Below, piece after piece: positions 3,388-59,241 of a stretch of DNA of 64,000 nucleotides. Position numbers and translations under genes: made by a program. This stretch comes from Candidatus Tectimicrobiota bacterium (lineage in GTDB: Bacteria; JACPUC01): the NCBI GenBank assembly GCA_016192455.1, contig JACPUC010000003.1, positions 62,001-126,000 on the forward strand, in the 5' to 3' direction. Numbering within the stretch: position 1 is the stretch's first letter; every line of letters begins with the position of its first letter. The notes beneath the pieces are model-generated. The model searched no databases, was not told where the DNA came from, and was given only the letters and a program-made list of their open reading frames with translations.

Positions 3388-3667
3388 CTAGTATCGTGTC
3401 CCCTACGTTCCATCACCTAATCCTGAGAGGGGACCTTCTCCCCAACCGCGCCCGCGGGGGCTGATCGTAGGGGCGGGGCTTGCCCCGCCCGCAACCTCAG
3501 TCTAGGAAGGAACCGTGTCTCCTCGCGCGCCCCGGCTTGGAGGGGCGGTTCGCGAACCGCCCCTACGGGATGGGAGTGTGGGGGAGCATGGGTTCCTCAC
3601 AAGCCCCTTGCCAATGCAGCGAACAGCGCCGCAACGATGTGAGCGAACTTCTGAGACGCAACACTAG
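3388..3667 (+). mobile_element. Non-autonomous ~280 bp MITE-like element, copy A
   Basis: CTAG-tatcgtgtccc...gagacgcaaca-CTAG; imperfect terminal inverted repeats; internal REP-like hairpins; 5 substitutions versus the copy at 10558. Confidence 0.85.
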
Positions 3668-4303: not shown

Positions 4304-6202
4304 CTAGCGGGCCTGCTCCGCCGCCGGGGCTGGTTCCCCTGCCGCAATCTGGGACGAACGAAGCGCCTCGCGGCCGGAAAGCTCGTGGAACTCCTCCTGG
4401 AGCCGCCGCAGCCAGGAGGCGTGGTCGGGGAAGGCGCGGAGCAGGGCCTGCGTCTCCGCGTAGAGCGGCTCCAGGTCCGTGTCGCCCCGCGCGCGCTTCT
4501 CGCGCAGCAGCACGCAGCGCGCATCCGGGTCGTTCCAGAAGACCTCGACGAGGTTGGCGATGCGCGCGATGCGCTCGTCGCGGCGTCCCAGCTTGCCGAG
4601 GACGGCGGCCAGCTTGCGCAGCACCGGCGGCACGCCGGGGCGCACCCGCAGCGAGCGCTGCCAGCCGACGGCCGCCTTGATGCGCTCTCCCTGCCGATCC
4701 CAGAGATCACCGAGGCGATCCCAGGCCGCCGCGCCGAGGATGGCGCCGCACTCCTCCAGCCGCCGCGCTGCGTCCCGCAGGTGCTCGTAGTGCGCCTGCT
4801 GCCAGGCGACCTTGAAGAGGAGGGCGTGGAAGGGATCGCGCTCGTCGACGATGGCAAGTCCGTCGAGCATCTCCTCCCGGAGCGCGCTCCCCTCCAGGAT
4901 CAGCAGGCAGTTGAAGAGGGCCTTCTCGGCATCCTCGGCGGCGTTGAGGAGGGCGAAGAGCTGCCCGAGGTTGAAGTAGCCCAGGGCGTAGTCCGGCAGC
5001 GCCTCGACCGCCGCCAGGGCATCCCGGACCGCCTGCGCCAGGAGCTGCTGCTCGATCTCCGGCTGGTTGTCGACCAGCGAGGCGAGGCAGGCGTGCAGCA
5101 CGGCCCGCGCATTCCAGGCGCGCGCCTCGCCCGGCGCCAGCTCCAGCGCCCGGCTAAGGAGTTGCCGCGCCAACTCGCAGGGCGCCACGCCCCAGGTCCT
5201 CCCCATGCGCTGGTAGACATGGTTGAACGCCTGCACCCCTTGCCAGTAGAGCTGCTGCGGCTCCGCGAGGCGTGTGGCGAAGCGCCGCGCGCCGCGCCCC
5301 CGGCCGGCGGCGCGCCCGCGCACCCCCTCGAGCAGGGCCTGGAGCGGCACGCGCGGCGGCCTCGCCAGAACGTTCGCCCGCCCCGCCGCCGCGATGCGCC
5401 GGCGCTCCTCCTCGTGGCTGAGGTAGTACTCCAGCCGCGCCTCGAAGTTCTCCTCGTTGTAAAGGACGCAGTCGACGCCGTCCGTGAAGCGCTCGCCGAT
5501 CTCCAGGTTGTCGGCTTCCATGAACAGGAGCGCCTCGCTGAGGGCGATCTCGTAGACGCGGAAGTTGAGGTCGCTCTGCAGCGACTGGTTGAAGGCGATC
5601 CTGCTGCGTCCGAGGGCGCGGTAGTAGGCGGGCGGGTCGAGCTGCTCGAAGAGCCCCACCCGCCACCTGCCGGAGAGCCGCGCGATGCGCCGCAGGTAGG
5701 CATCGCGCCGCGGGTAGACCGGCCCGTAGGCGCCGGCGAAGAAGATGTCGTAGTCCTTCTCCGGCGAGGGCCGCGCCTCGTTGAGCGGGTAGCGCGAGCT
5801 GTACACCTCCCAGGGCTCGACGTTGGGGTAGCCGAGGTCGCGCAGGAGCTGCGTGCACTTCGCACCCGCCACGATGGCGTCGAAGCGCCGCAGGTTTTCG
5901 CGCAGGCTCGTGAAGGCGCGGTTCCAATCGCAGACGATGGCCAGGGTGAAGCAGGGGCACTCATCGAGGCCGGGAGGGAAGGTGTGGTGCTCCGCCCAGA
6001 AGAAGATCAGCACATCCGGCCGCCAGGCGCCGAGCTGCCGCGCCATGGCCTCGGTGATCGTCTCGCGGTGCGGCTCATAGACGAGGTCGGCCGGCGGCGT
6101 GAGCTGCCCGGCCTCGTGGAACAGCTTGATGCTGATGTCCGCCGCAAGGCCCTGGAACATCAGGTGCGTGGGCCGGTTGAAAGGGCCGAAGAGCACCTTC
6201 AT
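4304..6202 (-). CDS. Glycosyltransferase (CgeB/Glyco_trans_1_2-like) with C-terminal TPR repeats
   Basis: YDIFFAG, SRIAFNQS..DLNFRVYEIA, F.DG.DCVLY, ERRRIAAAG; TPR-like repeats (PDYALGYFNLG). Confidence 0.75.
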   Translation of the reverse strand: MKVLFGPFNRPTHLMFQGLAADISIKLFHEAGQLTPPADLVYEPHRETITEAMARQLGAWRPDVLIFFWAEHHTFPPGLDECPCFTLAIVCDWNRAFTSLRENLRRFDAIVAGAKCTQLLRDLGYPNVEPWEVYSSRYPLNEARPSPEKDYDIFFAGAYGPVYPRRDAYLRRIARLSGRWRVGLFEQLDPPAYYRALGRSRIAFNQSLQSDLNFRVYEIALSEALLFMEADNLEIGERFTDGVDCVLYNEENFEARLEYYLSHEEERRRIAAAGRANVLARPPRVPLQALLEGVRGRAAGRGRGARRFATRLAEPQQLYWQGVQAFNHVYQRMGRTWGVAPCELARQLLSRALELAPGEARAWNARAVLHACLASLVDNQPEIEQQLLAQAVRDALAAVEALPDYALGYFNLGQLFALLNAAEDAEKALFNCLLILEGSALREEMLDGLAIVDERDPFHALLFKVAWQQAHYEHLRDAARRLEECGAILGAAAWDRLGDLWDRQGERIKAAVGWQRSLRVRPGVPPVLRKLAAVLGKLGRRDERIARIANLVEVFWNDPDARCVLLREKRARGDTDLEPLYAETQALLRAFPDHASWLRRLQEEFHELSGREALRSSQIAAGEPAPAAEQAR

Positions 6203-6522: not shown

Positions 6523-7377
6523 ATGAAACGCGGCAATCGACCCGGCAGAGGGGCGGGAACCCACGTCCTCCTCGGCGTGATCCTGCTCGGCGGTCTTCTT
6601 CTCTCAGCGCGGCAGGGCGGCGCGGCTCCCCGGGCCCCGCTCCTCAACATCTTCCCCCAGCCGCTGGTGCTCAGCGAGGCGGTGCGCGTCGGCCAGTTCG
6701 TGCGCTACCGGCAGAGCGGCGGACCGGAGCTGTTCACCTGGGAGCTTGCCGCGGTCGGCAAGGAGACCGTCGACAGCAAGGAGCAGGTGTGGCTGGAACT
6801 CCACTTCCAATACCCCAACCGCCTGCAAGGGCGCGAGATGACGATGAAGTCGCTCTACGAGGTGGAGAGCCTGCGGACGAGCCCCTGGGGTGTGCCGGCG
6901 CGCCCGAGCCAGCTCATCATGCTGCCGCCGGGGTTCACCGCGGCGCTCGCCCTGCCGCCCGGCTCCATCAGCAGCATGGTGCAGCAGATGACGGCCGCCG
7001 ACGGCGCGCCGAAGCTCGATCTGCGGGGCTACTTCGCCAGGCGCGCTGATCTCCCCGAGGAAGAACTGCGCCTGCCCGCGGGGACGTTCCGGACCCGCGT
7101 CTGGCGCGCCGTCATCGAAGGCGTGAGCGTGGCCGCCTACTTCACGCCGGAGGTGCCGCTCTCCCACCTTGCCCTGGTGACCATGCAGAGGAAGGGGACG
7201 CCCGAACCAGTGCGCGTCGAGCTCCTGGCGATGGGGGAGAGCGCCGCGACGCGCATCACCGTGCCGGTGGTCGACCGCATGCTCAGTCCGGCGCAGCACC
7301 CGGCGGCCGCGCCTGGCGCCGCGCCGTCCCCGGCGGCTCCCCGGCCCGCGGACCGCCCGGCGGGCGCCGGCAGGTGA
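6523..7377 (+). CDS. Hypothetical exported protein
   Basis: Basic plus hydrophobic N-terminus, LPAGTF motif, Ala/Pro tail, coding-like GC3. Confidence 0.6.
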   Translation: MKRGNRPGRGAGTHVLLGVILLGGLLLSARQGGAAPRAPLLNIFPQPLVLSEAVRVGQFVRYRQSGGPELFTWELAAVGKETVDSKEQVWLELHFQYPNRLQGREMTMKSLYEVESLRTSPWGVPARPSQLIMLPPGFTAALALPPGSISSMVQQMTAADGAPKLDLRGYFARRADLPEEELRLPAGTFRTRVWRAVIEGVSVAAYFTPEVPLSHLALVTMQRKGTPEPVRVELLAMGESAATRITVPVVDRMLSPAQHPAAAPGAAPSPAAPRPADRPAGAGR

Positions 7378-7402
7378 GGAGCGGCGGACGCGTCGCGGCC
7401 CG

Positions 7403-8197
7403 TCAGGAACGCGCCCGCGCGGCGGCCTCGTGGTGCGGTTCGTTGCGCTCGATGATGTCCAGGATGCGCTCCTCGAACTCGACCAGCTCGGCGCGGCTGG
7501 CGCGCGTGGGGCACTGCACGTCGTAGAGCACCCGGCTCGGCTTGCCGAGGACGATCAGGCGGGAACCGATCTCGAGGGCCTCGTGGATGTTGTGCGTGAT
7601 GAGCAGGCAGGTCTTCTTCGTCTCGCCGATGAGGGTCAGGAAGACCTCCCGCAGGCGCTGCGCGGTGGACTGGTCGAGGTGCCCGAAGGCCTCGTCGGCG
7701 AAGAAGACGTCGGGCGACAAGCAGAAGGCGCGCGCGATCCCCACGCGCTGGCGCATGCCGCCGGAGAGCTCGTGCGGGTAGGCGTCCTCGAAGCCCATGA
7801 GCTCGAGCTTGTGCAGCCAGTGCCTGGCGATCTCACCTTGCTCCGCCTCGGAGTAGCCGAGGATCTCGAGCCCCACCTTGGCGTTCGCGAACGCTGTCCG
7901 CCACGGCAGCAGGCGGTCGGTCTGGAAGATCACCCCGAACTTGGCGCGAAAGAAGTCGAAATCCTGGTACGGGTCTCTGCCGAGAACGGTAATGGAACCC
8001 GCGGTCGGGTTTTCCAGCCCGAGGAGCAGGTTGAACATCGTCGACTTGCCGCAGCCGGTTTTGCCGACGATGGAGACGATCTCGCCCTCCCGCACCTCGA
8101 GCGTCAGGTCATCCACCGCCACGAAACGACTGCCGTCCACGCTGGTGAAGACGTGGCGCACATGCTCCATCTGAACCACGGGCGCGGAGGGGATCAT
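7403..8197 (-). CDS. NitT/TauT-type ABC transporter ATP-binding protein
   Basis: Walker A GKTGCGKS, signature LSGGMRQR, Walker B FADEAF, ITH. Confidence 0.92.
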   Translation of the reverse strand: MIPSAPVVQMEHVRHVFTSVDGSRFVAVDDLTLEVREGEIVSIVGKTGCGKSTMFNLLLGLENPTAGSITVLGRDPYQDFDFFRAKFGVIFQTDRLLPWRTAFANAKVGLEILGYSEAEQGEIARHWLHKLELMGFEDAYPHELSGGMRQRVGIARAFCLSPDVFFADEAFGHLDQSTAQRLREVFLTLIGETKKTCLLITHNIHEALEIGSRLIVLGKPSRVLYDVQCPTRASRAELVEFEERILDIIERNEPHHEAAARARS

Positions 8198-10557: not shown

Positions 10558-10837
10558 CTAGTATCGTCTCCCCTACGTTCCATCACCTAATCCTGAGAGG
10601 GGACCTTCTCCCCAACCGCGCCCGCGGGGGCTGATCGTAGGGGCGGGGCTTGCCCCGCCCGCAACCTCAGTCTAGGAAGGAACCATGTCTCCTCGCGCGC
10701 CCCGGCGTGTAGGGGCGGTTCGCGAACCGCCCCTACGGGATGGGAGTGTGGGGGAGCATGGGTTCCTCACAAGCCCCTTGCCAATGCAGCGAACAGCGCC
10801 GCAACGACGTGAGCGAACTTCTGAGACGCAACACTAG
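10558..10837 (+). mobile_element. MITE-like element, copy B (direct repeat of copy A)
   Basis: 280 bp, 275/280 identical to 3388-3667, CTAG at both ends. Confidence 0.85.
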
Positions 10838-11953: not shown

Positions 11954-13279
11954 TTACGCGCCGTACGCCTCCGCCAGCAGGGTGATGGGATGGACGACGC
12001 GGCAGGTCAGGCCGGCGCGCGCCACCCCCAGGCGAAGCTGCAGGAGGCAGCCGGGGTTGCCGCTGGCGATGATGTCCGGCGCGGCGGCGGCGATGTGCGC
12101 CATCTTGCGGTCGAGGATTTGCAGGGAGAGGTCGGCGTGGGCGAGGGTGTAGATGCCGGCGCTGCCGCAGCAGGCGTCGGCCTCCGGGAAATCGACCAGC
12201 TCAACTCCCTGGATCAGGCGCAACAGCTCGCGCGGCTGGCGGCTGATCTGCTGCCCGTGCAGGAGGTGGCAGGGGTCGTCATAGGCGACGCGCGCCGCGA
12301 CGGCCTTCGGCGGCCGCTTCAGCTCGAGCGCCGCCAGGAACTCGCTCACGTCGCGCACCTTCGCCGCGAAGGCGCGGGCGCGCTCGGCGTAGGCCGCATC
12401 CGCCGCCAGGAGCCGGCCGTAGCTCTTCAGGTGCGCGCCGCAGCCGGCGGCGTTGACGAGGACGGCGTCGCAGGCCAGCTCCCCGAGCTGGTCGATGACG
12501 CGCCGCGCCATGGCGCGGGCCTCCTCGCCCCGCCCCGCATGGGCGTGCAGGGCGCCGCAGCAGCTCTGCGGGCGCGGCACCAGGACGTCGCAGCCGTTGG
12601 CCCGCAGGACGCCCACCGTCGCCTCGTGGACGTCATCGAAAAGCACGTCCATGACGCAGCCGGTCAGCAGCGCCACCGTGGCCCGGCGCTCATGGCGGGC
12701 CCGATACACCGGCTTCGCCCGCAGGCTGAAGGAGCCCCCCGCCGTGGGGGGGAGCATGGCGGCGAAGTTGCGCTGTTCCGGCGACAGGAGCGCCCGCGCC
12801 GGCCCCAGGAGGAGCGGCCGCGCCCAGCGCAGCAGCGCAAAGGCGGCGCGCAGCAGCGCCGGCCTGGCAATCAGGTGGCGCAGCAGCAGTTCGCCCTGGC
12901 TCCCCTGCTGGTAGCGCTGCGGCGCCGCCCGGTAGAGGCGTTCGCGCGCCGACTCCATCAGCGCCCCGAACCGCACCCCGGAAGGGCAGGCCGTCTCGCA
13001 GGCGCGGCAGTTGAGGCAGAGGTCGAGGTGCTTGATGTAGTTGTCGGTCAAGCCGATGCGCCCCTCGGCCTGGGCGCGGATGAGGTAGATGCGGCCGCGC
13101 GGCGAGTCGGTCTCGCGGCCCAGGGCACGGTACGTCGGGCAGTGGTCGAGGCAGAGACCGCAGTGGATGCACGGCAACGCCAGGTCGATGCCGGATCCGT
13201 TCGCCTCGCCGGGCGCCGTGGTCGAGGCGGCGGCGTCGGGGAGATCGGCGCGCTCGCCGCCGGGAGTGAGGGGACCCAC
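11954..13279 (-). CDS. glcF: Glycolate oxidase iron-sulfur subunit
   Basis: CIHCGLCLDHCP and CLNCRACETACP ferredoxin motifs plus two CCG domains; follows glcD and glcE. Confidence 0.85.
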   Translation of the reverse strand: MGPLTPGGERADLPDAAASTTAPGEANGSGIDLALPCIHCGLCLDHCPTYRALGRETDSPRGRIYLIRAQAEGRIGLTDNYIKHLDLCLNCRACETACPSGVRFGALMESARERLYRAAPQRYQQGSQGELLLRHLIARPALLRAAFALLRWARPLLLGPARALLSPEQRNFAAMLPPTAGGSFSLRAKPVYRARHERRATVALLTGCVMDVLFDDVHEATVGVLRANGCDVLVPRPQSCCGALHAHAGRGEEARAMARRVIDQLGELACDAVLVNAAGCGAHLKSYGRLLAADAAYAERARAFAAKVRDVSEFLAALELKRPPKAVAARVAYDDPCHLLHGQQISRQPRELLRLIQGVELVDFPEADACCGSAGIYTLAHADLSLQILDRKMAHIAAAAPDIIASGNPGCLLQLRLGVARAGLTCRVVHPITLLAEAYGA

Positions 13280-13280
13280 G

Positions 13281-14654
13281 CTAGATGCCTCCTGCGAATC
13301 GGCCGGGGTTCATCACCCCGTTCGGGTCGTACTGCTGCTTCAGGGCGCGCATGATCGGCAGCGCCCCCCCCACTTCGCCCCAGGTCTCGCAGTGCTGCTT
13401 GAACGCCGGCTCGGCGCGCTCCAGGATGAGGCAGCCCCCCTGCGCGACGGCCCGCTGGCGCGCCCGCCGCACGCTCGCCGCGGCTTCCTCCAGGCGCTCC
13501 GCTTCGTAGAACGCCGCAAGCCGCGCCTCGCCGTTGCCGGCCTGGGCGTAGATGTAAGGGGTGAAACCGCCGGCGCGCAGATCATCCTGCACCGCCTGGA
13601 GGAAGCCGGCGAGGCCGGAGACCGGCAGGCTGGCGGCGGCGAGGAAGAACGGGCGATCGAAGGAGGCCAGCACCTTCGGGAAATCCTGGATGATGTTCCA
13701 GATCATCGTGGTGTCGAGGCCGTCCAGGACGATCCACTCGCTGCTCAGGCCGCCGGCGTGCCGCCGCGTGATCTCGTCCAGGCTGCGCTGCAGCTCGCTC
13801 TGCGTCCCCTCCAGGCCGATGAGCAGGGCGCACGTCTCCCCGGCGGGCTCGAGGTTGGCGCGCTCGGCCAGCAGGCTGAGGGCCGGCTGGTTGAGAAGGT
13901 CGAGCGCCGTCGGCACGAGGCAGGACCCGCGGATACGCCGCAGGGCCTCGCAGGCGCCGTCGAGCTCCCGCGCCATGAGGAGGAGGACGCTCTCCTTCAG
14001 CGGCAGCGGCTGCAGCTTGCACGTGCACTCGACAAGCACGCCCAACGTCCCGAAGGAGCCGATGTAGAGCTTCATGAGGTCGTAGCCGGTGACGTTTTTG
14101 ACGACCCGGCCGCCGGCGCGCGCCACCGTGCCGTCCGGCAGCACGATCGTCGTCCCCAGGACGAGGTCGCGCATGCCGCCGTGGCCGTAGCGCCGCGAGC
14201 CGACGCTGGCCGCCGCCATGATGCCGCCGATGGTGGCCTCCTCGACGAACGGCGGGTCGATGGGGAGCCATTGGCGGCTGGGGCGCAGCATCTCCTGCAG
14301 CCTCTTCAGGCGCAGCCCGGCCTGCATCGTGGCGGTGAGGTCCCCCGGCACGTGGTCGACCAGCCGGTCGAGGCGCTCCAGCCCAAGGACGAGGCCGGGA
14401 CGAGCCGGCACGTTGCCCGTCGCCAGCTTGCTGCCGCCGCCGCGCGGCCAGACGGCGACCCCGCGCGCGTTCGCCCAGCGCAGCACCGCCGCCACCTCTT
14501 CGACCGTGGCGGGGAAGACGGCCCCCAACGCCGCCACGCCGTCGACGGCGTAACCGTCGGCGCCAGTCGGGGCTACGGAGGAGAATGCCTCGGCGGGCAG
14601 CTCGCAGCGCAAGGTTGAGAGGTCCAGGGTCGTCGGGTCGGTCATGTTCGTCAC
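13281..14654 (-). CDS. glcE: Glycolate oxidase FAD-binding subunit
   Basis: PRGGGSK, GGRVVKNVTGYDL, GSFGTLG, K..YDPNGVMNPG. Confidence 0.85.
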   Translation of the reverse strand: MTNMTDPTTLDLSTLRCELPAEAFSSVAPTGADGYAVDGVAALGAVFPATVEEVAAVLRWANARGVAVWPRGGGSKLATGNVPARPGLVLGLERLDRLVDHVPGDLTATMQAGLRLKRLQEMLRPSRQWLPIDPPFVEEATIGGIMAAASVGSRRYGHGGMRDLVLGTTIVLPDGTVARAGGRVVKNVTGYDLMKLYIGSFGTLGVLVECTCKLQPLPLKESVLLLMARELDGACEALRRIRGSCLVPTALDLLNQPALSLLAERANLEPAGETCALLIGLEGTQSELQRSLDEITRRHAGGLSSEWIVLDGLDTTMIWNIIQDFPKVLASFDRPFFLAAASLPVSGLAGFLQAVQDDLRAGGFTPYIYAQAGNGEARLAAFYEAERLEEAAASVRRARQRAVAQGGCLILERAEPAFKQHCETWGEVGGALPIMRALKQQYDPNGVMNPGRFAGGI

Positions 14655-14675
14655 GCACGAGGGAGCGGGGGCTGC

Positions 14676-16109
14676 TCAGGCGGAAACGTTCGGCGCCTTG
14701 GCGAAGGGCCTGGTCTCGACACAGCGGCCGGGCGTGGGAAAGACCTTGCCGGGGTTGCACAGCCCCTCGGGGTTGAAGACGCTGCGCACCCGCTGCATCA
14801 GCTCGAGGTCTTGGTCAGTAAAGAACCAGGGCATCCACTCGCGCTTCTCCAGGCCGATGCCGTGCTCGCCGCTGAGCGAGCCGCCGAGATCGACGCAGAC
14901 CCGCAAAATCTCCTCCCCCGCCTTCAGGGCGCGCTCCTGATCGCCGGGCTTGCGGTCATCGAAGAGCACGAGAGGGTGCAGGTTGCCGTCGCCGGCGTGG
15001 AAGACGTTGGCGATGCCCAGGCCGTGCTTCTCGACAATGGCGTAGATGCGCCGCAGCGCCTCCGGCAGCTTGGTGCGCGGGATCACGCCGTCGTGGGTGT
15101 AGAAGCTGCGCGTCACCCGGCCCAGCGCCCCGAAGGCCTCCTTGCGCGCCTTCCAGAGCAGGGCGCGCTCGGCGTCGTCCTTGGCGACGCGCACCTCCAG
15201 GCTGCCGTTCTGCCGGCAGATGGCCTCGATGCGCTCAGCCAGCTCGTCGAGGCCGTCGCGGATGCCGTCGAGCTCGATGAGGAGCACCGCCCCCGCAGCC
15301 GCCGGGAAGCCGAGGTGCAGGTACGCTTCCACCGCCCGCAGCACGAAGTGGTCGATCATCTCCAGGGCCGCCGGGATGATGCCGGCGCCGATGATCTCCG
15401 TCACCGTGGAGCTGGCGGCATCGATGCTCGGGAAGACCGCGGCCAGCGTCTTGTACGCCTCGGGCAGGCGGGTCAGGCGGACGATGATCTTGGTGATGAT
15501 GCCGAAGGTCCCCTCCGAGCCGACGAGGAGGCCGGTGAGGTCGTAGCCGGGGCCGCGTCCCGCGCGGCTGCCGCAGGTGATCGTCTCGCCGTTCGGCAGC
15601 ACCATTTCGAGCCCCAGCACGTGGTTGGTGGTGACCCCGTACTTCAGCGTGTGCGGGCCGCCGGAGTTCTCGGCCGCGTTGCCGCCCAGGGTGCAGGCCG
15701 CCTGGCTGGAGGGGTCCGGCGCGTAGTAGAGCCCCATCCCCTGCACCGCCTGGCTGAGGCGCAGGTTCACCAGGCCCGGCTCGACGACCGCCACCTGGTT
15801 GACCTCGTCGATCTCGAGCACGCGGTTCATCCGCGCCATCTCGATGAGCACGCCCCCCTCCACCGGCAGGGCGCCGCCGCTCAGGCCGGTGCCGGCGCCG
15901 CGCGCCAGGAAGGGGACGCGCAGGCGGTGGCAGAGGCGCACCACCTCGGCGATCTGCTCGGCCGTCGTCGGAAAGACCACCGCCGTCGGCAGGGCGCGCT
16001 CAATCGTGTGGCCGTCGCACTCGTAGACCAGCAGCTCGTCCGCCGCCGAGGTCACCGCCTCGACCCCGAGCAGCTTTTCCAACGACTGGATCAGGCTTGC
16101 GGATTCCAT
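14676..16109 (-). CDS. glcD: Glycolate oxidase subunit D (FAD-linked oxidase)
   Basis: RGAGTGLSGG, PDPSSQ, HTLKYG, FHAGDGNLHP, SGEHGIG, NPGK. Confidence 0.9.
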   Translation of the reverse strand: MESASLIQSLEKLLGVEAVTSAADELLVYECDGHTIERALPTAVVFPTTAEQIAEVVRLCHRLRVPFLARGAGTGLSGGALPVEGGVLIEMARMNRVLEIDEVNQVAVVEPGLVNLRLSQAVQGMGLYYAPDPSSQAACTLGGNAAENSGGPHTLKYGVTTNHVLGLEMVLPNGETITCGSRAGRGPGYDLTGLLVGSEGTFGIITKIIVRLTRLPEAYKTLAAVFPSIDAASSTVTEIIGAGIIPAALEMIDHFVLRAVEAYLHLGFPAAAGAVLLIELDGIRDGLDELAERIEAICRQNGSLEVRVAKDDAERALLWKARKEAFGALGRVTRSFYTHDGVIPRTKLPEALRRIYAIVEKHGLGIANVFHAGDGNLHPLVLFDDRKPGDQERALKAGEEILRVCVDLGGSLSGEHGIGLEKREWMPWFFTDQDLELMQRVRSVFNPEGLCNPGKVFPTPGRCVETRPFAKAPNVSA

Positions 16110-16373
16110 ACGCTAGAAGGTACGGTGAAGAAGAGGCGGTTTGCAAGTCCTTCCGGCTGCGGTGAGCGGAGGGCACGGAAGCGGGAATAGCTTGCCCCGC
16201 GTCTCAAGTTAAAGAATAATGGCGCGCAGACCGCCTCCGCCCCGGGGAGTTGCAACTCCGCCCAGGACATCGGGGAGGGCGGCGGGGTCGCCGCGGTGCG
16301 GCGACCCGGCGGCTGCTGGCCGCGATGCGGCATTACGTCCAAGCCACGAGCTCTGGAAAGGGGGGAAACGCGC

Positions 16374-17000
16374 ATGCAACCGCGCTCCGACTACTACGAC
16401 ATGCCGCCGGACAAGTGGATCAGCTTCAAGTATTGCGACCTCACGAAGCTGATCAAAATCCGCTTCAGCCGCCAGATCAGGAAGCGCTACGCGAATTTCG
16501 ACGCCGCCGTGCGCCTCGGCGAGACGGCCCCCGAGGTGGACCTGCGGGGCGACGACGGCAGGCGCTACCGGCTCTCCGAGCGCGTCGGCAAGAAGTACGT
16601 CGTCATGAGCTTCGGCGCCATCACGTGACCCCCCTACCGCGGGCAGGTGCCCGCCCTGGAGGAGATCGCGCGCGCGTACGACGACGTGGACGTCTGGCAC
16701 ATGTACGTGCGCGAGCCGCACCCGCAGGAGCGCAAGTTCAAGAAGTACTGGCCCCACAAGGACTACGAGCACCGCGTGGCGTACGCCAAGGAGATGCGCG
16801 AAGTGCTGCACATCGCCTCCCCCATCGTCATCGACGGCATGGACGAGAAGGTGCACCACGCCTACGGCAACATGCCGAACGCGGTCTACGTCATCGACAA
16901 GGCGGGCAAGGTCGTCTACAAGGCCAACTGGACCGACTCGCCGGTAATCGATCAGGTGCTCGCCCAGCTCCATGCGGAAGAGACCCCCGTGGCTCGCTAG
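16374..17000 (+). CDS. Iodothyronine-deiodinase-like, peroxiredoxin-fold selenoprotein (UGA at 16626-16628 read as Sec), 208 aa
   Basis: ORFs 16296..16628 and 16647..17000 share a frame. Read-through gives APEVDL...FGAIT-U-PPY...YVREPHP...DGMD...AYGNMPNAVYVID, matching the deiodinase motifs FGS(C/A)TUPPF and YIEEAH. Confidence 0.85.
16629..16662 (+). promoter_or_regulatory. Candidate bacterial SECIS element
   Basis: Stem GCGGGC (16639-44) / GCCCGC (16649-54) with loop AGGU; the loop starts 16 nt after UGA and has G at position 2. Confidence 0.7.
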
Positions 17001-17200
17001 TGTTGGTACTCGCAAGTTCGCTCACATAGTTGCGGTGTTGCTCACTGCATCGGCAAGGGGCTTGTGCGGGACCCATGCTCCCCCACATCCCCCCATCCCG
17101 TAGGGGCGGTTCGCGAACCGCCCCTACAAGGCGGGGTGCGCGAGGGGACAAGATTCCCTGGCAGACTTCGGTTCCGGGCGGGGCAAGCCCCGCCCCTACG
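16997..17200 (-). mobile_element. MITE-like element, copy C (inverted, diverged, one end missing)
   Basis: CTAG-tgttggtactcgcaagttcgc end, then GTAGGGGCGGTTCGCGAACCGCCCCTAC and GGGCGGGGCAAGCCCCGCCC hairpins. Confidence 0.8.
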
Positions 17201-21094: not shown

Positions 21095-21302
21095 GCAGTA
21101 TCGTGTCCCCTAAGTTCCACCACCTAATTCTGAGAGGGGCCCTTGTCTCCTCGCGCACCCGCAGGGGCTGATTGTAGGGGCGGTTCGCGAACCGCCCCTA
21201 CGGGATGGGGGTGTGGGGGCGCATGGGTCCCTGATAAGCTCCTTGCCAATACAGCGAGCAAAGCCGCAACTAGGTAAGCGAACTTGCGAGACGCAACAGC
21301 AG
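21095..21302 (+). mobile_element. MITE-like element, copy D (short, single REP hairpin)
   Basis: GCAG-tatcgtgtcccctaagttc...gaacttgcgagacgcaaca-GCAG; both ends present with a GCAG direct repeat. Confidence 0.8.
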
Positions 21303-26694: not shown

Positions 26695-26976
26695 CTAGTG
26701 TTGCGTCCCACAAGTTCGCTTATCTATTTGCGGCGTTCCTCGCTGTATTGGCAAGAGGCTTGTAAGGGACCCATGCTCCCCCATGCCCCCATCCCGCAGG
26801 GGCGGTTCGCGAACCGCCCCTACAAGGCGGGGTGCGCGAGGGGGCGCGGCTCCCTCGCAGACGTAGGCGCCGGGCGGGGCAAGCCCCGCCCCTACGATCC
26901 GCTCCTACGGAGTGCGCGGAGGAGACAAGGTCCCCTGTCAGAATTAGGTGGTGGACCTTATGGGACACGATAGTAG
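26695..26976 (-). mobile_element. MITE-like element, copy E (inverted, full length, extra hairpin module)
   Basis: CTAG-tgttgcgtcccacaagttcgc...gggacacgata-GTAG; carries both REP hairpins plus GCGAGGGGGCGCGGCTCCCTCGC. Confidence 0.82.
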
Positions 26977-34902: not shown

Positions 34903-34963
34903 GGGGGCAGCAAGGGCCTCTTTTTCATAACAAGGGCATTTGCTCGGAGAGAAGGAACGTACT

Positions 34964-35992
34964 ATGGATTTTCTGGCACAAGAGCAAACGGTCAGGGAAG
35001 CACTCCAAACCATATTATCTAACCTTACACTTATTTTATCGCAAGACTTGGTGCGAACAAATGAACTAGGCACTGAGCTAGATTTCAGCGATGGACTTAA
35101 AGTATTTGATCGCACACTTGCACTTTTTAGATCTCTCCAAGACGCCAACCTAGACAATGTGCCTCTTCAACGCTTGCAGGAATTAAAGTCGTTAGCAGAC
35201 GAAGCATCTCAACACTTCAAGGATGTTCAAACCTTCAGCTCAGCAGGACAAGATAAACCCAAACAAGCTAGGGATCAGCGTATTCGGGCAATAGCGGAGC
35301 AATATAATAATCAATTTCAGTCAATTTCGCCCATTATTGCTTATTCGGTAAGGAAGGGGACAGACTTTCAAAGGTTAGAAGAAGATGCGCGGAAAACCGT
35401 GGCTGAAGCTAAGGAAATCCGCGATGGTATGGAAAAAGAGAGTAAAGAGTGGCTAGCGCAAATTGAAGATACTCAAGAGAAAGTGAGAAGGGCGGCTGCA
35501 GAAGTGGGTGTAGCCCAACATGCCATTCATTTTTCTGAAGAGGCTATAAAGTATAGAAAGCAAAGTATCGGGTGGCTTATTGTAACTGGATGTTTATCCT
35601 TAATTACTATATTATACGGTTTGTATAACGCTTGGAATTATACTTGGCTTTTTAAGAGTGGGCCTTCGATATTAACTACTGAGCAAACCATACAAATAGC
35701 CATGTCGAAGCTAGTAGTTTTCGCAGTTCTCTATTATGGGCTAATCTGGTCTGGAAGAATTTACAAGGCTCAGCGGCACAATTATGTGATAAATCGGCAT
35801 AGGCAAAATGCTTTAAGCACGTTCGAAACATTTGTGAAAGCGGCCAGTGATGATGGGACGAAAAACGCTGTTCTTATCCAAGCTACGCAATCAATATTTT
35901 CTCCTCAAAACTCTGGGTTTTTGTCTAAGGATTCGGAGCCTTCAGCGTCCCCTAAGATTCTGGAAATAATTAGAAATGCAATACGAGGATAG
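34964..35992 (+). CDS. Hypothetical coiled-coil membrane protein (two TM helices), low GC
   Basis: Long open frame with A/T-rich codons, AAGGA RBS, helical N-terminus, two hydrophobic segments, then NRHRQNALSTF. Confidence 0.75.
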   Translation: MDFLAQEQTVREALQTILSNLTLILSQDLVRTNELGTELDFSDGLKVFDRTLALFRSLQDANLDNVPLQRLQELKSLADEASQHFKDVQTFSSAGQDKPKQARDQRIRAIAEQYNNQFQSISPIIAYSVRKGTDFQRLEEDARKTVAEAKEIRDGMEKESKEWLAQIEDTQEKVRRAAAEVGVAQHAIHFSEEAIKYRKQSIGWLIVTGCLSLITILYGLYNAWNYTWLFKSGPSILTTEQTIQIAMSKLVVFAVLYYGLIWSGRIYKAQRHNYVINRHRQNALSTFETFVKAASDDGTKNAVLIQATQSIFSPQNSGFLSKDSEPSASPKILEIIRNAIRG

Positions 35993-36186
35993 GGGCAGTA
36001 ATTTTCTTGTGTCCGTAAAGGTTGGCCTCGGGTTAAAGATTTAAGTACCTTCTGCAAACTACGTGGCCAGATTGGCCGGACGGACCTCCACGGATAGCCG
36101 GTAACGCGGGGGAAACCGAATCGATTCCAAGCCACATCTCCACCGCCACAACCCTCCAAATGAGCTAAGCACCCGTCGCTTTTCCC

Positions 36187-38074: not shown

Positions 38075-38369
38075 GGGGGGCTCACGAGGACGAAGGCCGA
38101 TGCCGGGGGGTAGCGCGTCCCGGCTCCTCGCCATGCCTTGCCAGGGAAGCGCCGCGAGGCAAGCTCCCTGGCGGCGGGCGGAGAGACGCCTTTCGCCGGA
38201 GAATCTCGAACCTTCGCACAGCACTACCGTTGTTTCTTCGTTGCCACGCGCATGCGGCCTTTCCCCGTCTCCCCCCCTTCCTGCCTCAACCACATGGCGA
38301 GAGATGCTCTGTTCATAGTATTCTCATAGCATGTAAAATGAAGACTCACAATCTAGAGTCACCTTGGCT

Positions 38370-39428
38370 TTAACGTCGCCGGCCAATTTCCACATAGTAT
38401 CTGGTTAACCCCATTGTATCACACCATGCTCTTATGCTATTAACGAGCAAACAGAATGTTACTAACACGGTGACGTAGTACCACCACTGGTGAACCCTCC
38501 ATGGCAGTCCAACTGGTTCCAAAATCCATCTCAAAATAGCCATGCAGACAACCAATCCCAGAAATGAATGGAAAGAAGTATAGAAGCTCGTCATGCGGCG
38601 AATTGTCCAGTCGTTCATTTTTTTTTCCATATAGCAATGGTTATGAATTGCTACTGGATACAAGTCATGCCGGTAGCCACTCAGCGCCCACCAGATTGCG
38701 GTCGCTGCAAGAATTCCCATGAACAACGTTAATGTCATACTTACGCCCCCCTGCCAAAACACGAAGAAATTACCAACAATACCTAATGCAATACCATCCC
38801 TGCAAAGCCTCCACTTCTTCTGCTTACCTTCAACGGCCTCTTGTGGCGTAGTGGTTCCTGGTTGGACAGTGCTTGTTTGCCCCCGATGCGTCACACGTCT
38901 GCCATTTAGAACTGCAAGCGCAACCCTCATATAGATAGCGGCCACAATGAGGCTTCCTATTACCCACCAACTTATTTTACTTACACGAAAGTACCACCAC
39001 GAGAAAACAATGAAAAAAGCAGATAGAATCATAACAAGCTTCCACCAGTCACCTCCATCACTTTCCGGCGTTATCGTTCCTTGCCTACCAGCGATTCTTC
39101 TCCTGATAACCGCTAGAGTGCCGTCATCTACAACAGCTTCATATTCGAAGCCGCCTAGAATGCCTACTAGTGTCAACAAAGCGATGCTGATAACGCTTAA
39201 TAAGTAACCAAGGGTTATCGTTAAGGCACCTCCAGCCACGAGAGCGGCTAATACACTTCCTAGAATAGTTTCGGCATGTGCTCCACTTGCAACAAGATAG
39301 TCTATCCATTTAGGAATTGGATTTTCTAAATTAAAGGAAGTAGTTGAAATTGCCGCAAGCGCAAAAATCATGACTACAATAGGCGGAACGATGAATCTGG
39401 GGCGACGGATATCATCCATTATGTTCAC
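38370..39428 (-). CDS. Hypothetical multi-pass membrane protein, low GC
   Basis: 352 aa with about 8 hydrophobic segments; AGGGGA RBS; A/T-rich codons. Confidence 0.72.
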   Translation of the reverse strand: MNIMDDIRRPRFIVPPIVVMIFALAAISTTSFNLENPIPKWIDYLVASGAHAETILGSVLAALVAGGALTITLGYLLSVISIALLTLVGILGGFEYEAVVDDGTLAVIRRRIAGRQGTITPESDGGDWWKLVMILSAFFIVFSWWYFRVSKISWWVIGSLIVAAIYMRVALAVLNGRRVTHRGQTSTVQPGTTTPQEAVEGKQKKWRLCRDGIALGIVGNFFVFWQGGVSMTLTLFMGILAATAIWWALSGYRHDLYPVAIHNHCYMEKKMNDWTIRRMTSFYTSFHSFLGLVVCMAILRWILEPVGLPWRVHQWWYYVTVLVTFCLLVNSIRAWCDTMGLTRYYVEIGRRR

Positions 39429-39543
39429 TCCCCTAAGGGATATACATCTTAGCCTGATTGTCTACTTTAAGAAAAACGATGGATGCAATGCGAAGCCGGC
39501 AATGAAGTATTCGATTGCCCCTTCCGTTACTCTCCCCTTTTCA

Positions 39544-40902
39544 CTAAGGGTCGATGATTGACTCTAAATCAGACCTCCCGCCGGTCGAGACGGGTCTAAC
39601 ACCGTCCTCTAATTCTTCCAGAAGAATACGATCAACTCCATTGAATTCAGAATACCAGCGCGGATATTCCCTGGCTCCTTTTACAATACTTTTTATCGCT
39701 TCATAGTGTTTATCCTCAATGATGCGGTCGACTGTAAAGGCACTCTTTGTCGCAGGAATCAGGTATCGGGGCACCGTAGATGTGCCCTTCTTGCCCATTA
39801 CAATCCACTCGTAGGTTTCCTCGGCATGTATATACTTCACGAAGGCTACGGCGGCCTTTTGGCACTTATCTCCACACTTTCTGTTTAATACAAAAGCGTC
39901 CACCATAAATACGTGACTATTCCTTTCCCCAAGTGGGAGTGGTGCGATATAGATGGGCTCCGCCGTGTCCTTCTTGACGTTATTGTGCTTCTTGACGTTA
40001 TGAAGACTTTCAAAATATCCGAAGATGGCCTTAACTTTATGATCTGCGAACTTAGACTCAGCCTTGTAAGGCTCCTCTTCAAATGAACCATCTAAACACT
40101 GACTTGGTTCTTCCGGATGTTTCCTACACTGAGACGCAAACTTACGGAGCGATAACAGGACATTCCGAACATATGGTGCGGACCTTCTCCGCAAGATAGC
40201 GCGAATAGCTGAGTCAATGTTTTCTGTCCGGGATTCATCAGCATCAGACCATGCCTTGACATAAAGAGTCGGTAAGCGCCATTGTCCAACCATGTTCCCA
40301 GCTAGATTGGGAATATCCTTAGTATTTAATTGTAGCGTGTCGATAAGTATATCAAGGCTTTGTGCCTTTGCGACTTTTTCGTCGCGAGCTAGAATGAAAT
40401 AGCCACATAACCAGTGAGGCACGCCGTAAAGCCTTCCATTTATGATGGAAGCCGATCTCCCCGCTTGGTACCAATCAGTTTGATCAAGCCCAGGCGCCTC
40501 CCAGGGTGCTATAATGTTGCGCTTATAGAGCTCACCGAGTAACATGGTATCCACTTCTACAACATCGTAGCCACCGTTTTCTGGACGGGTTGTTAACCAT
40601 TGAGCGAGCTTGTTAAGGTCATAATGATAATCTTCGTTGGGCTTGATGGGTCTTAAGTCTAAGCGTATAGAAGGGTGTGTGCTGTTAAATTCGTCGATGA
40701 TGGTGGACCGTAGTTTCTCATAGTTATCACTATCGCTATCTGGGATGTATGGATAAAGGGCGACTCGTAGAACTACTTTTTGGTTCTTATAGTCAAGAAA
40801 ATAAAAAACATTTAGTGCGACAACGACGAAAGCGTAGAATGCAATTCCAACGAATGCAATTGCACGACCTAACCGGAAAGTGACCTCACTGGCGCCGGGC
40901 AT
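39544..40902 (-). CDS. Thiaminase I (thiamine pyridinylase)-like protein with N-terminal TM anchor, low GC
   Basis: LRVALYPYIPD, DVVEVDT..L, YGVPHWLCG (nucleophilic Cys position), GYFESL (general-base Glu position), PRYLIPA. Confidence 0.75.
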   Translation of the reverse strand: MPGASEVTFRLGRAIAFVGIAFYAFVVVALNVFYFLDYKNQKVVLRVALYPYIPDSDSDNYEKLRSTIIDEFNSTHPSIRLDLRPIKPNEDYHYDLNKLAQWLTTRPENGGYDVVEVDTMLLGELYKRNIIAPWEAPGLDQTDWYQAGRSASIINGRLYGVPHWLCGYFILARDEKVAKAQSLDILIDTLQLNTKDIPNLAGNMVGQWRLPTLYVKAWSDADESRTENIDSAIRAILRRRSAPYVRNVLLSLRKFASQCRKHPEEPSQCLDGSFEEEPYKAESKFADHKVKAIFGYFESLHNVKKHNNVKKDTAEPIYIAPLPLGERNSHVFMVDAFVLNRKCGDKCQKAAVAFVKYIHAEETYEWIVMGKKGTSTVPRYLIPATKSAFTVDRIIEDKHYEAIKSIVKGAREYPRWYSEFNGVDRILLEELEDGVRPVSTGGRSDLESIIDP

Positions 40903-41129
40903 AAAGTAACCTACTTATGTCTGTTAGAGATGCATAGAGGATGTGCTCAGTATAACTACACAGTATACGCAACGCCAGAATAGGCATAGTATCTTCTGAT
41001 TCTGGTACTGTCAAGAGTTTTGCGTAGAAGAGCGTAGGAGAGGGCGTTTCTCGTGTTTCACCCACTGGGCGGTGAGGCGCTGATCTCCCACCCCTGCTTA
41101 TTTCAGGCAAGCTCAGCTTCGCGCCTCCC

Positions 41130-42278
41130 TCACCGTTTCGGCAGGTTGAGGCCGCGCATGGCGATGGCGTTGCGTTGAATCTCCGGCGTGCCGCCGCCGA
41201 TGAGGTAGAAGGGGATCGTCCGGTAGGTCTTCTCGAAGAGGCCCTCGGCGCCGTGGCTGTTGCTGCGCCGCAGACCCGCCAGGCCGTCGACCTCCATGCC
41301 GAGATCGGACATCTCGTAGATGAGCTCGGAGGTCGCCAGCTTCGAGAGCGAGGCTTCCCAGAAGAGGTCCTCCCCCTGATCCTGGCGCCAGGCGATCTGG
41401 TAGTTCATCCAGCGGCAGGTGAGGATTTCGGCCCGGAGCTGCGCCAGGCGGTGCGGCACGCGGGAGCCGGCGGCGGGCGGGGAGGTCATCACCTTGCGGT
41501 GCATGATGTCGTAGCCGCGCATCAGGAAGCCGACCTTGCCGATGGCGGAGCGCTCGAACCCCAGCGTCGTGAGGATGTGGTTCCAGCCGGTGTCCTTGCG
41601 TCCCAGGAGGTTCTCCGCCGGCGCCTCGACGTTGTCGAAGAAGCACTGGTTGACGCGCCAGCCGGCCATGCTCCAGAGGGGGCGGATGGTGATGCCGGGG
41701 CTGCGCATATCGACGACGAAGAGGGAGACGCCGTCGCGCGTGCCCACCTTGTCCGGCTGCGTGCGGGTGGCGACGAGGGCCATGTCCGAGCGGTGCGCGC
41801 CGCTGGTGAAGATTTTCTGGCCGCTGAGGCGGTAGGCGCCGCCGGCAGGGACGGCGCGGAGCTGCAGGTTCATCAGATCGCTGCCGGCTTCCGGCTCGGA
41901 GAGGCACCAGCAGCAGGTCACCTCGCCCGCGGCGATGCGCGGCAGGAAGCGGGCGCGCTGCTCGTTGTTCCCATAGGTGGCGATAGACTGCCCGACGAAG
42001 ACGACCGAGCCGGTGTAGGCGCCGAGGGGGGCCAGGGCGTAGTTCATCTCCTCGTAGAAGATGGCCATATCGACGTTGCTGCGTCCGCGTCCGCCCAGCT
42101 TCTCCGGCCACTGCATGCCGACGTAGCCGGCGGCGGCCAGCTTCTTGTGGAAGATCGGGCTGTAGCTCTCGTCCTCCTTGCTGAGGTCGGCATAGATCGC
42201 CTCGGTGAGCTCGCGGGCGATGAAGGCGCGGACCTCCTGGCGGAACTCGTCATGCTGCGGCTCGAAGGTCAGATCCAT
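41130..42278 (-). CDS. Acyl-CoA dehydrogenase (catalytic-type subunit)
   Basis: SEPEAGSDL, GQKIFTSGA, N..FFDNV, L.FER, IGGGTPEIQRN. Confidence 0.9.
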   Translation of the reverse strand: MDLTFEPQHDEFRQEVRAFIARELTEAIYADLSKEDESYSPIFHKKLAAAGYVGMQWPEKLGGRGRSNVDMAIFYEEMNYALAPLGAYTGSVVFVGQSIATYGNNEQRARFLPRIAAGEVTCCWCLSEPEAGSDLMNLQLRAVPAGGAYRLSGQKIFTSGAHRSDMALVATRTQPDKVGTRDGVSLFVVDMRSPGITIRPLWSMAGWRVNQCFFDNVEAPAENLLGRKDTGWNHILTTLGFERSAIGKVGFLMRGYDIMHRKVMTSPPAAGSRVPHRLAQLRAEILTCRWMNYQIAWRQDQGEDLFWEASLSKLATSELIYEMSDLGMEVDGLAGLRRSNSHGAEGLFEKTYRTIPFYLIGGGTPEIQRNAIAMRGLNLPKR

Positions 42279-42317
42279 GGCACGTTCCTCTGTGGCGGGG
42301 GCGGCCGGATTGCCCCG

Positions 42318-43430: not shown

Positions 43431-43654
43431 GCGCGCCACTCCCTCGTAAGGCGGTTCTTGGCTCGGTGGTGGCATCCCAGGCTCGCCCGCGAGCCTGACG
43501 CAGCGCCAGGGAATTGCCGGGTGGAAGGCATTGTGCCAGATTCACCCAACCGCCGCAACGACCTTCCCCCGCCATGCCGCGGGGTTCGACAGCTCCGCCG
43601 GAACCGCGCCGCGGCGGCGCTGGATGAGACTGTTGGGAAGACGCCGGGGGGAAG

Positions 43655-47035: not shown

Positions 47036-47160
47036 CGTAACGCTCCTGTCGCCCGCGGTGCGGATCGTGCTCCCGTATCGCCCTGCCCCCGCCGTCCGGT
47101 CACCAGGCGCGAGTTGCCAGCCCGCCGCGCATCGCCTACAATCGCCCCGCATGCCGGCAC

Positions 47161-47188
47161 GTAGGGGCGGTTTGGGAGCCGCCCCTAC
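47161..47188. repeat. Stand-alone GTAG-type REP-like palindrome
   Basis: GTAGGGGCGG-TTTGGGAG-CCGCCCCTAC. Confidence 0.75.
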
Positions 47189-52813: not shown

Positions 52814-53272
52814 CTACCCGGCGCCGCCGCGGAACCCTCCCAGGGTGGTGCTCAGCTCCGCGCTGTCATAGAGCATCGCGTACATGCCGAGCTTCTCCTC
52901 GTAGAGGGCGCTCGGCACCTCATCCTTCAGAGCGGCTTCAAGGATGTGGAAGACAGGGAGTCCCAACGAGACCCCCGCCAAGGGCCCGGCGTAGGCGGGG
53001 TCGCCACTTGTCACCGTCTCCGCGGCGATCTTGATGGCTTCCAGTTCGCCCGCCCCCAGGACCACCACCAGGTCCGCAGCGCCGTGTTCATCGACGAGCT
53101 GCTTGATGGTGCCCTGGTTCTCCAGGTCCATGGCGCCGGCCGCCGTTCAGACGAAGCACTCGGTGGTCTGGTACACGACCTCGGCGCCGGCCGCCGCGGC
53201 AAGCTCGGCAATCACCGGCCCGGGAACGCCGTCGCGCTCGCCGATGGCGATAACCTTCTTCCCTTTCAGCAT
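52814..53272 (-). CDS. grdA: Glycine/sarcosine/betaine reductase complex selenoprotein A (UGA at 53147-53149 read as Sec), 152 aa
   Basis: [19 protein letters not shown]...[17 protein letters not shown]...[21 protein letters not shown] is the canonical GrdA pattern; the ORF track shows only the part after UGA. Confidence 0.93.
53113..53126 (-). promoter_or_regulatory. Candidate SECIS hairpin of grdA
   Basis: CCUGG-AGAA-CCAGG; loop starts 25 nt after UGA with G at loop position 2. Confidence 0.6.
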
Positions 53273-53348
53273 CGTTCGCTCTCCTTCCTAGCTGGGGTAT
53301 CCGCGTGGCGCGCCGTGGCGCCCGCGCTTGCCTCCTTCCACCGCCTCC

Positions 53349-59213: not shown

Positions 59214-59241
59214 CGTGCGACCTCGGGGTGAACATTCTAAT

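Follow-up and report, generated by a model that had tools for sequence, protein, structure and literature searches.

Does a UGA codon that falls inside an active-site-like turn end a bacterial gene, or does it specify selenocysteine (Sec)? The question is raised by a locus at positions 16374 to 17000 of a 64,000-nucleotide stretch of contig JACPUC010000003.1 (positions 62,001 to 126,000 of the forward strand), from the assembly GCA_016192455.1 of a Candidatus Tectimicrobiota bacterium. This whole stretch is referred to here as the window, and coordinates are those of the window. A sequence-only reading had proposed that two open reading frames (ORFs) are joined here, in frame, by a UGA within FGAIT-U-PPY and followed by a hairpin whose loop lies 16 nt past the UGA, and that together they encode a deiodinase-like selenoprotein. 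Our analysis leads to the same answer: the locus very probably encodes a real selenoprotein of the prokaryotic deiodinase-like family (PF00837), and to the whole explanation, in which the identity of the selenoprotein, the recoding and a catalytic scheme are taken together, we assign a probability of roughly 0.85.

That bacterial deiodinase-like proteins had already been noticed, as the sequence-only reading remarked, is correct. Zhang, Fomenko & Gladyshev 2005 (PMC1088965) describe Sec- and Cys-containing members of PF00837 with a bacterial selenocysteine insertion sequence (SECIS) in the Sargasso Sea metagenome, and suggest for the bacterial family a redox function other than thyroid hormone deiodination. 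The family also appears in the Global Ocean Sampling (GOS) data, where the table in PMC2398784 gives no motif for it. Two reviews give the family motif as UxxC (PMC9312934, PMC13188914), and according to the second, little is known so far of what such selenoproteins, found by computation, do. The prokaryotic family itself is known from computational prediction alone.

The UGA codon lies within a single coding frame

The elements on which the argument depends are the following.

16374..17000, plus strand: selenoprotein coding sequence, ATG to TAG, 208 residues, with TGA read as U at codon 85; the start is the first Met of the Acidobacteriota homologues
16626..16628, plus strand: Sec codon TGA (U85) within FGAIT-U-PPY, aligned to the catalytic Sec of Dio3 (4tr3) and Dio2 (9h48)
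16639..16654, plus strand: bacterial SECIS core hairpin, with a 6-bp G+C stem (16639-16644/16649-16654) and an AGGU loop (16645-16648)
16998-17000, plus strand: stop codon TAG, from the sequence and its translation

The TGA at 16626-16628 is the sole break in the 208-codon frame, as had been proposed from the two in-frame ORFs. The read-through product contains both downstream motifs that had been reported, YVREPHP and DGMD...AYGNMPN, and the claim of a single N-terminal Cys in a protein of 208 residues also stands, Cys21 being the only one besides position 85. In the same frame, the GC content at third codon positions is 0.96 before the TGA and 0.99 after it, with 145 and 123 open codons, respectively. 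This coding signal on both sides of the TGA is much stronger evidence than the hairpin alone. A six-frame scan of the window found only three TGAs with a coding-like frame on both sides: U85, the Sec codon of a grdA gene described below, and the true stop of a tandem gene. The last of these, a third Sec-codon candidate at 42318-42320 on the minus strand, was rejected, as a ribosome-binding site and an ATG follow it; it is the lone TGA between two acyl-CoA dehydrogenase genes arranged in tandem and in the same frame (41130-43541, minus strand), a pair that mimics read-through.

The prediction that gene callers would split such a gene is borne out by its database relatives. A word-indexed protein search returned 34 near-length relatives, none of which covers more than 56% of the query. 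Of these, 32 were aligned (P0007 and P0020 were left out, their rows duplicating those of their neighbours), and all 32 start at residue 92 or later, the first Met/Val codon past the TGA. Since these relatives start only after the TGA, gene callers split the gene everywhere. One database fragment of 84 residues, with 99% identity to the query, stops precisely at residue 84.

The read-through protein belongs to the deiodinase-like family

For the profile, sequence and structure programs, U was written as C. The profile check that had been suggested for the read-through protein placed it above the Pfam cut-offs for T4_deiodinase (PF00837; E = 1.3e-14, 54.5 bits against a cut-off of 27, with residues 37-184 on profile positions 64-217 of 237), for Redoxin and for AhpC-TSA (PF00578; 38.1 bits against 26). 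The peroxiredoxin active-site motif PxxxTxxC is not matched, the residues at -7, -3 and -1 of U85 being Met, Ala and Thr.

The best sequence matches in the PDB are mouse Dio3 (4tr3, 2.5e-10) and Dio2 (9h48, 1.8e-7), both iodothyronine deiodinases (Dio). In these alignments U85 falls on the catalytic Sec (Sec170 of Dio3, crystallised as Cys), YVREPHP on YIEEAHP and His128 on the histidine of the Dio insertion, and the VxD and AYG motifs also align. An AlphaFold2 model built from an 86-sequence alignment has a mean predicted local distance difference test (pLDDT) score of 87.7 and a predicted template modelling (pTM) score of 0.84, with only residues 1-19 under 50. It shows a thioredoxin/peroxiredoxin-like fold with Sec85 at the start of helix 1 (residues 86-101). 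Foldseek ranks Dio2 (9h48, 4.3e-11) and Dio3 (4tr3, 7.2e-11) at the top, narrowly before ResA, with ResA/Etrx/DsbE-type oxidoreductases and Bcp/AhpE peroxiredoxins close behind. No hydrophobic segment was found in the protein (maximum Kyte-Doolittle mean over 19 residues, 0.78), and neither a signal peptide nor a membrane anchor; from its sequence it is probably soluble and cytoplasmic.

Sec and Cys codons align with the UGA in related genes

Homologues of a Sec protein had been expected to have Cys or Sec aligned with the UGA, and this is what both searches returned. An exhaustive protein search gave 1962 representative clusters at E <= 0.001, and with the threshold at E <= 1e-10 it gave 546. 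Position 85 is present in 139 stretches from the best 150 representatives, with Cys in 124, Ser in 7, Ala in 2, Gly in 2, and Asn, Trp, Thr and Arg in 1 each; 15 further stretches are fragments that end before this position or start after it. At the nucleotide level, a genome scan yielded 29 loci, in which the codon aligned to U85 is TGA in 13 and TGC or TGT in 15, and is cut by the contig end in 1. The TGA loci comprise seven from Acidobacteriota or unclassified bacteria (70-72% identity), two from Nitrospinota and one each from an unclassified bacterium, Binatia (Binatota), Chloroflexota and a Syntrophobacteraceae metagenome-assembled genome (MAG). The Cys loci are mainly from Alphaproteobacteria, with others from Actinomycetota, Myxococcota, a Gammaproteobacteria MAG and a Bdellovibrionales MAG, and closely related Cys forms occur in the cultured Alphaproteobacteria Stappia and Dinoroseobacter. 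Across the break, the window gene shares 70-73% identity with its Acidobacteriota homologues in both halves.

Relationships were estimated from a quick maximum-likelihood tree of 52 rows: the window, 26 loci and 25 representatives, these being the first of 59 (4 of the 25 were labelled Cys while really having Ser, Ala, Gly or Asn there). The window protein is sister to the seven Acidobacteriota-type Sec forms, with a support of 100 in the Shimodaira-Hasegawa-like approximate likelihood ratio test (SH-aLRT). Adding the Nitrospinota to this group gives a clade of 10 rows, all of them Sec forms (SH-aLRT 97). To account for the Sec label, two changes are required on this tree, and one change is also allowed.

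Several individual sequences deserve mention. Two distant database representatives have other residues at the Sec/Cys column, Gly in P0049 and Trp in P0085. Both may be Sec forms in which gene callers, applying code 25 or code 4, translated the TGA; in the tree, P0049 clusters with the Chloroflexota Sec form. In the TGA locus L021 (6166-6330) a run of N directly follows the TGA and the active-site motif is duplicated on either side. The Cys-form gene of L029 (1036-1667) loses its frame about 105 codons in, by a frameshift or a MAG error. A regular-expression match at L018:10580 was discarded as a chance match outside the gene.

The hairpin after the UGA is conserved among the Sec forms

The consensus for bacterial SECIS elements (bSECIS), as given in PMC13188914, is a loop of 3-9 nt on a stem of 4-16 bp with a minimum free energy (MFE) of -7.5 kcal/mol or lower, a G within the first two bases of the loop, with G or U as the usual next base, and 16-37 nt between the UGA and the loop. 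In the window the UGA is followed by 10 unpaired bases and then by the stem, and the distance to the loop is exactly 16 nt, as had been counted. With its AGGU loop, 6 bp, 16 nt and MFE of -12.8 kcal/mol, the hairpin agrees with the published description on all four counts.

A stem-loop with a GGU loop is found 16-17 nt past the UGA in all 13 Sec forms analysed, at -8.5 to -15.6 kcal/mol (mean -11.6); L021 was left out of this analysis for the run of N right after its TGA. None of the 15 Cys forms has a hairpin at the SECIS site (mean -4.3 kcal/mol), and the hairpins that they occasionally have elsewhere lack the GGU loop. Among the ten sequences in the same register, 96.7% of cells pair, against 33-60% with slid partners. 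Both Nitrospinota have C-G in place of G-C at one stem pair, where the change of a Gly codon to Arg is offset by a synonymous Pro change, and two stem pairs show G-U wobbles in four Acidobacteriota. In L010-L012 the register of the hairpin shifts by 1-2 nt, which limits the formal covariation count to ten sequences, the others being scored one by one; the three most distant Sec sequences, among them those of Binatia and Chloroflexota, frame the invariant GGU with stems that differ completely in sequence.

The organism appears to decode Sec

A second selenoprotein gene in the window bears on the capacity of the organism to insert Sec.

52814..53272, minus strand: grdA, glycine/sarcosine/betaine reductase selenoprotein A (NF040748, 198.2 bits against a cut-off of 130)

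Its in-frame TGA (53147-53149) lies within the canonical active-site motif, a hairpin with an AGAA loop, and with G at the second loop position, follows 25 nt past this UGA, and the gene adjoins one for GrdC-beta (646 bits against a cut-off of 450). For GrdA the table in PMC1088965 contains no Cys-containing homologue, and a grdA that has no Cys forms makes sense only in a Sec-decoding organism. Used as a proxy, grdA shows, as far as its sequence goes, that this organism would need Sec decoding. The grdC-grdA pair itself (52814-54881, minus strand) looks like an orphan: no grdB, grdD or grdE was recognised nearby, and the flanks are an Acg-family flavin mononucleotide (FMN) oxidoreductase and a small cupin-like ORF.

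TGA also terminates 13 of the 34 other window genes that have family support, and since it is a normal stop in these genes, a code with TGA as sense throughout is ruled out.

Active site and proposed catalytic cycle

In animal deiodinases, according to PMC11592359, a Ser/Thr/Tyr/Glu/His/His set has been proposed as a proton relay, and a proximal and a distal Cys support the re-reduction of oxidised selenium. Most of the corresponding relay positions are conserved among the 86 aligned sequences: Thr84 in 81, Tyr111 in 84, Glu114 in 86, His116 in 84 and His128 in 55, along with Arg113 in 79, Asp154 in 85 and Pro168 in 81. The positions of the proximal and distal Cys hold Ile83 and Ser149. Position 88 is Tyr or Phe, with Cys there in 5 of the 86 sequences, and the protein has neither CxxC nor UxxC. 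Conservation of Cys21 is confined to the window and the seven Acidobacteriota-type sequences; the residue lies in a low-confidence part of the model and might act as a resolving cysteine.

We propose the following scheme. At UGA85 the hairpin at 16639-16654 would recruit, through its AGGU loop, SelB carrying Sec-tRNA(Sec), and Sec would be inserted without termination, a step that we infer from the conserved anatomy of the site. In the folded protein Sec85 would be flanked by Thr84 and would face Tyr111, Arg113, Glu114 and His116 of YVREPHP, as well as His128 of the deiodinase-type insertion. Its selenolate would attack a small substrate at an electrophilic atom, the oxygen of a peroxide or the halogen of an aromatic ring, while the Tyr/Glu/His network would protonate the leaving group. 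An external thiol, from a thioredoxin-like protein or a low-molecular-weight compound, would then reduce the oxidised selenium.

The last step is drawn as in 1-Cys peroxiredoxins because both resolving-Cys positions are occupied by Ile83 and Ser149, and the missing Dio cysteines are likewise consistent with the earlier expectation that an external thiol is probably needed. On these grounds we regard a 1-Sec cycle with an external reductant as the somewhat likelier arrangement. The thioredoxin-like domains fused to 4 of 31 long homologues suggest a reductant of the thioredoxin type. As to the substrate, our choice is only tentative and our confidence low in each case, with a peroxide or another oxidant slightly preferred; an organohalogen would be rather unlikely, and a disulfide unlikely.

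Weighing the evidence and the alternatives

Several observations weigh against the explanation given here, on the side of recoding as well as on that of function. The stability of the 61-nt region with the hairpin is ordinary (z -0.60, with 43 of 200 shuffles folding as well or better), and in this DNA of 67% GC an equally stable simple hairpin follows 60 of the 1393 TGA triplets of the window (4.3%); the loop rules are also satisfied after 24 of the 1393 (1.7%). As the stability of the hairpin is unremarkable alone, its weight comes from its conservation across other genomes. Covariation is thin: among 10 sequences a single pair has changed in both of its partners, and the score is reached by 7 of 500 shuffles, a fraction that, by the warning of the tool itself, is not a probability. 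Rfam placed no family at its gathering score in the window, and at E <= 10 it gave only chance-level matches, on palindromic repeats downstream of the gene. Within the 64-kb window there is no selA, selB or selD, and neither the window nor the 13 TGA loci (L001-L012 and L021) contain a tRNA gene, and so no tRNA-Sec (selC); a SelD candidate in the window, an AIRS/AIRS_C protein at 45950-47257 (minus strand), turned out to be PurM (TIGR00878, 318.5 bits).

With regard to family and function, the NCBIfam model NF038285 (deiodinase_rel) scores 106.9 bits against a cut-off of 250. The match is confined to the C-terminal half of the model (positions 177-324 of 347), whose N-terminal domain is absent here, and with a score below the cut-off the protein is not that hypothetical equivalog. 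Ser167 of the animal Dio relay corresponds to Ala82 in the window clade, while Ser is present there in 53 of the 86 sequences. The conserved P168, together with ResA/TlpA-type fold matches close to those of Dio, means that the chemistry could be disulfide exchange. The gene neighbourhood is not conserved among the Sec-form loci and gives no functional clue, and the literature covered, with most subscription journals outside its scope, yielded no characterised activity of a bacterial member.

The alternative that survives best accepts the selenoprotein and differs in its chemistry. Here the protein would be a true reductive dehalogenase, whose selenolate halogen-bonds an iodinated or brominated phenolic compound and takes X+, the Tyr/Glu/His relay protonating the ring as in animal Dio. 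The turn T-U-P-P-[YF] and the motif Y-x-x-E-x-H-P match animal Dio, His128 aligns with the Dio-insertion His, Dio2 and Dio3 are the top fold matches, and many relatives come from marine bacteria; in one Cys clade, MarR regulators (L019, L023, L027) or resistance-nodulation-division (RND) efflux genes (L020, L029) stand beside the gene, as they often do with detoxification genes. Cys is a poor substitute for Sec in animal deiodinases, and its presence in most members of the family therefore weighs against dehalogenation. The Ser167 equivalent is moreover Ala, the thyronine-site positions Phe258 and Arg275 are not conserved, with P168 at that of Phe258, and no bacterial dehalogenation by the family was found within the same literature scope. 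The authors of the 2005 description (PMC1088965) themselves expected a different, redox function. We consider this alternative rather improbable.

A narrower form of it concerns only the all-Sec clade of Acidobacteriota and Nitrospinota, which keeps the T-U-P-P-aromatic turn, the Tyr/Glu/His relay and the insertion His without resolving Cys. With this combination the clade could be a true reductive dehalogenase, tolerant of oxygen and independent of cobalamin, whose substrates are natural iodo- and bromo-aromatics, a suggestion that we hold to be doubtful.

Closer to the thioredoxin family, the protein could be a monothiol-type thiol-disulfide (selenenylsulfide) oxidoreductase that acts on a protein or low-molecular-weight disulfide, with a function related to that of ResA/TlpA. 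The ResA, Etrx and DsbE structures follow close behind Dio in Foldseek (1e-10 to 5e-10), PDB sequence matches to the thioredoxin family extend down to 1.6e-5, fusions to thioredoxin domains exist, and Pro168 is conserved at a position that we take to be the cis-Pro of thiol-disulfide oxidoreductases. Such an enzyme would be expected outside the cytoplasm, where ResA/TlpA work, while this protein has no signal peptide or membrane anchor; it also has no CxxC or UxxC, with Tyr or Phe at position 88, and carries an invariant Glu114 and a conserved His116, whose equivalents are, to our knowledge, not features of ResA/TlpA. This makes the oxidoreductase an unlikely alternative to the scheme proposed above.

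The remaining alternatives deny the recoding itself. The lack of Sec machinery in the window and the public annotation of the relatives as short hypothetical proteins would fit a pseudogene or an assembly or sequencing error, in which a nonsense mutation would recently have produced the TGA and the full-length product would not be made. This is already contradicted by the recurrence of the TGA in 13 loci, spread over Acidobacteriota, Nitrospinota, Binatota, Chloroflexota and a Syntrophobacteraceae MAG, by the perfect coding signal on either side, by the conserved hairpin and by the 70-73% identity to Acidobacteriota across the break, and we consider it very improbable. A TGA read as Trp or Gly under an altered code, to which P0085 (Trp) and P0049 (Gly) would point had their residues not probably come from gene callers using other codes, or two separate small genes, is a still fainter prospect and likewise already contradicted, as TGA ends 13 of the 34 family-supported window genes, the homologues have Cys rather than Trp or Gly, and the break falls within the active-site turn of a single thioredoxin-fold domain.

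Gene neighbourhood and other features of the window

The selenoprotein gene is divergent from a cluster of GlcD/GlcE/GlcF-like genes on the minus strand (11954-16112), in line with its description as divergent from glcDEF; the GlcD, GlcE and GlcF matches are all under the NCBIfam cut-offs. Two candidate expression signals precede the gene.

16192..16220, plus strand: weak sigma-70-like promoter match, 9 of 12 positions, by consensus match only (1 found against 0.1 expected)
16355..16368, plus strand: Shine-Dalgarno-like purine-rich run, putative and found by eye, with a G-run ending 8 nt before the ATG

The promoter match sits within the 260-nt intergenic region of the divergent genes.

An attempt to read the function from gene context was abandoned: the only neighbour common to Sec loci is a divergent Phosphodiest gene, present in 4 of the 11 loci scanned, all 4 from Acidobacteriota, and the window has GlcDEF-like genes there. 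In that one Cys clade, 3 of the 14 loci scanned have the MarR regulator immediately upstream and in the same orientation, and the RND efflux genes flank the gene in the two loci named above; these neighbours point to a role in stress or detoxification, which fits peroxides and halogenated aromatics alike. The Chloroflexota Sec form (L012) lies between an upstream MerR regulator (5402-5833) and a 4Fe-4S dicluster protein (6575-7882).

Distant Cys homologues (P0084, P0096, P0135, P0141 and others) are fused to further domains, which among the 31 long forms include EF-hands in 8, LTXXQ in 3, BD-FAE alpha/beta hydrolases in 2, DoxX in 1 and a methyltransferase in 1. The DoxX fusion is found in P0046, one distant homologue, and the window has a DoxX gene together with one for a DUF255/Thioredox_DsbH thioredoxin-domain protein at 56538-59240, about 40 kb from the selenoprotein gene; this proximity is probably a coincidence.

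Additionally, an intergenic palindrome with a 10-base arm, resembling repetitive extragenic palindromic (REP) elements, matches at 31 places when no more than 1 mismatch is allowed, 8.5 being expected. It is located at about 3467-3566, 10637-10736, 17100-17199, 21174-21201, 26796-26895, 47161-47188 and 48203-48230, one copy lying just downstream of the selenoprotein gene, and it is this element that draws the chance-level Rfam matches. Two islands of low GC content, at 35000-36000 (0.42) and 38300-41000 (0.45-0.52), stand out from the window at 67% and may have been acquired horizontally. Their ORFs (34940-35992, plus strand; 38370-39428 and 39544-40902, minus strand) have no family match or a weak one to the thiamine pyridinylase BcmE (TIGR04541), far under the cut-off.

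Discussion

The window gene is a further member of a family known since 2005 and is not new in kind. Like the prokaryotic proteins described earlier, it is bacterial, belongs to PF00837, forms part of Sec/Cys pairs at the catalytic site and has its SECIS directly after the UGA. The distinctions, as judged from sequence, are small: the window clade has a U-P-P-Y/F turn without a Cys at +3, whereas the reviews give UxxC, a comparison with published descriptions, and the gene belongs to the all-Sec clade of Acidobacteriota and Nitrospinota.

With animal Dio1-3 the protein shares the Thr before Sec, the Pro-Pro-aromatic sequence after it, Y-x-x-E-x-H-P, the insertion His, the VxD and AYG motifs and the thioredoxin/peroxiredoxin-like fold. 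It differs from them in its sequence (about 24% identity in the fold alignment), in having neither the N-terminal membrane anchor nor the proximal and distal Cys, and in Ala for Ser167, Arg113 where Dio has Glu and Pro168 where Dio3 has Phe258. Its SECIS is a hairpin within the coding region, while the animal one is an element of the 3' untranslated region. We do not expect thyroid hormones to be substrates of the window protein. From 1-Cys and Bcp/AhpE peroxiredoxins and ResA/TlpA, with which it shares the fold (matches of 1e-10 to 1e-8), a single redox residue at the N-terminus of helix 1 and the use of an external reductant, it is set apart by Thr at -1, the peroxiredoxin motif having it at -3, by the absence of the Pro of that motif at -7, by the lack of CxxC, and by a Glu/His relay and an insertion of the deiodinase type.

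The finding alone does not alter current knowledge. Its direct use is a correction of annotation, the window gene and its 34 near-length database relatives being filed as truncated hypothetical proteins; with Sec genes filed in this way, selenoproteome counts are too low for Acidobacteriota, Nitrospinota and related MAGs. If the all-Sec clade did dehalogenate, this would be a bacterial chemistry ancestral to thyroid-hormone deiodination. Beyond the single gene, the large family of 1962 clusters shares its catalytic apparatus with the thyroid-hormone deiodinases, and a soluble member of 208 residues whose SECIS is clear and whose close Cys relatives include cultured bacteria offers a convenient entry to a first biochemical test.

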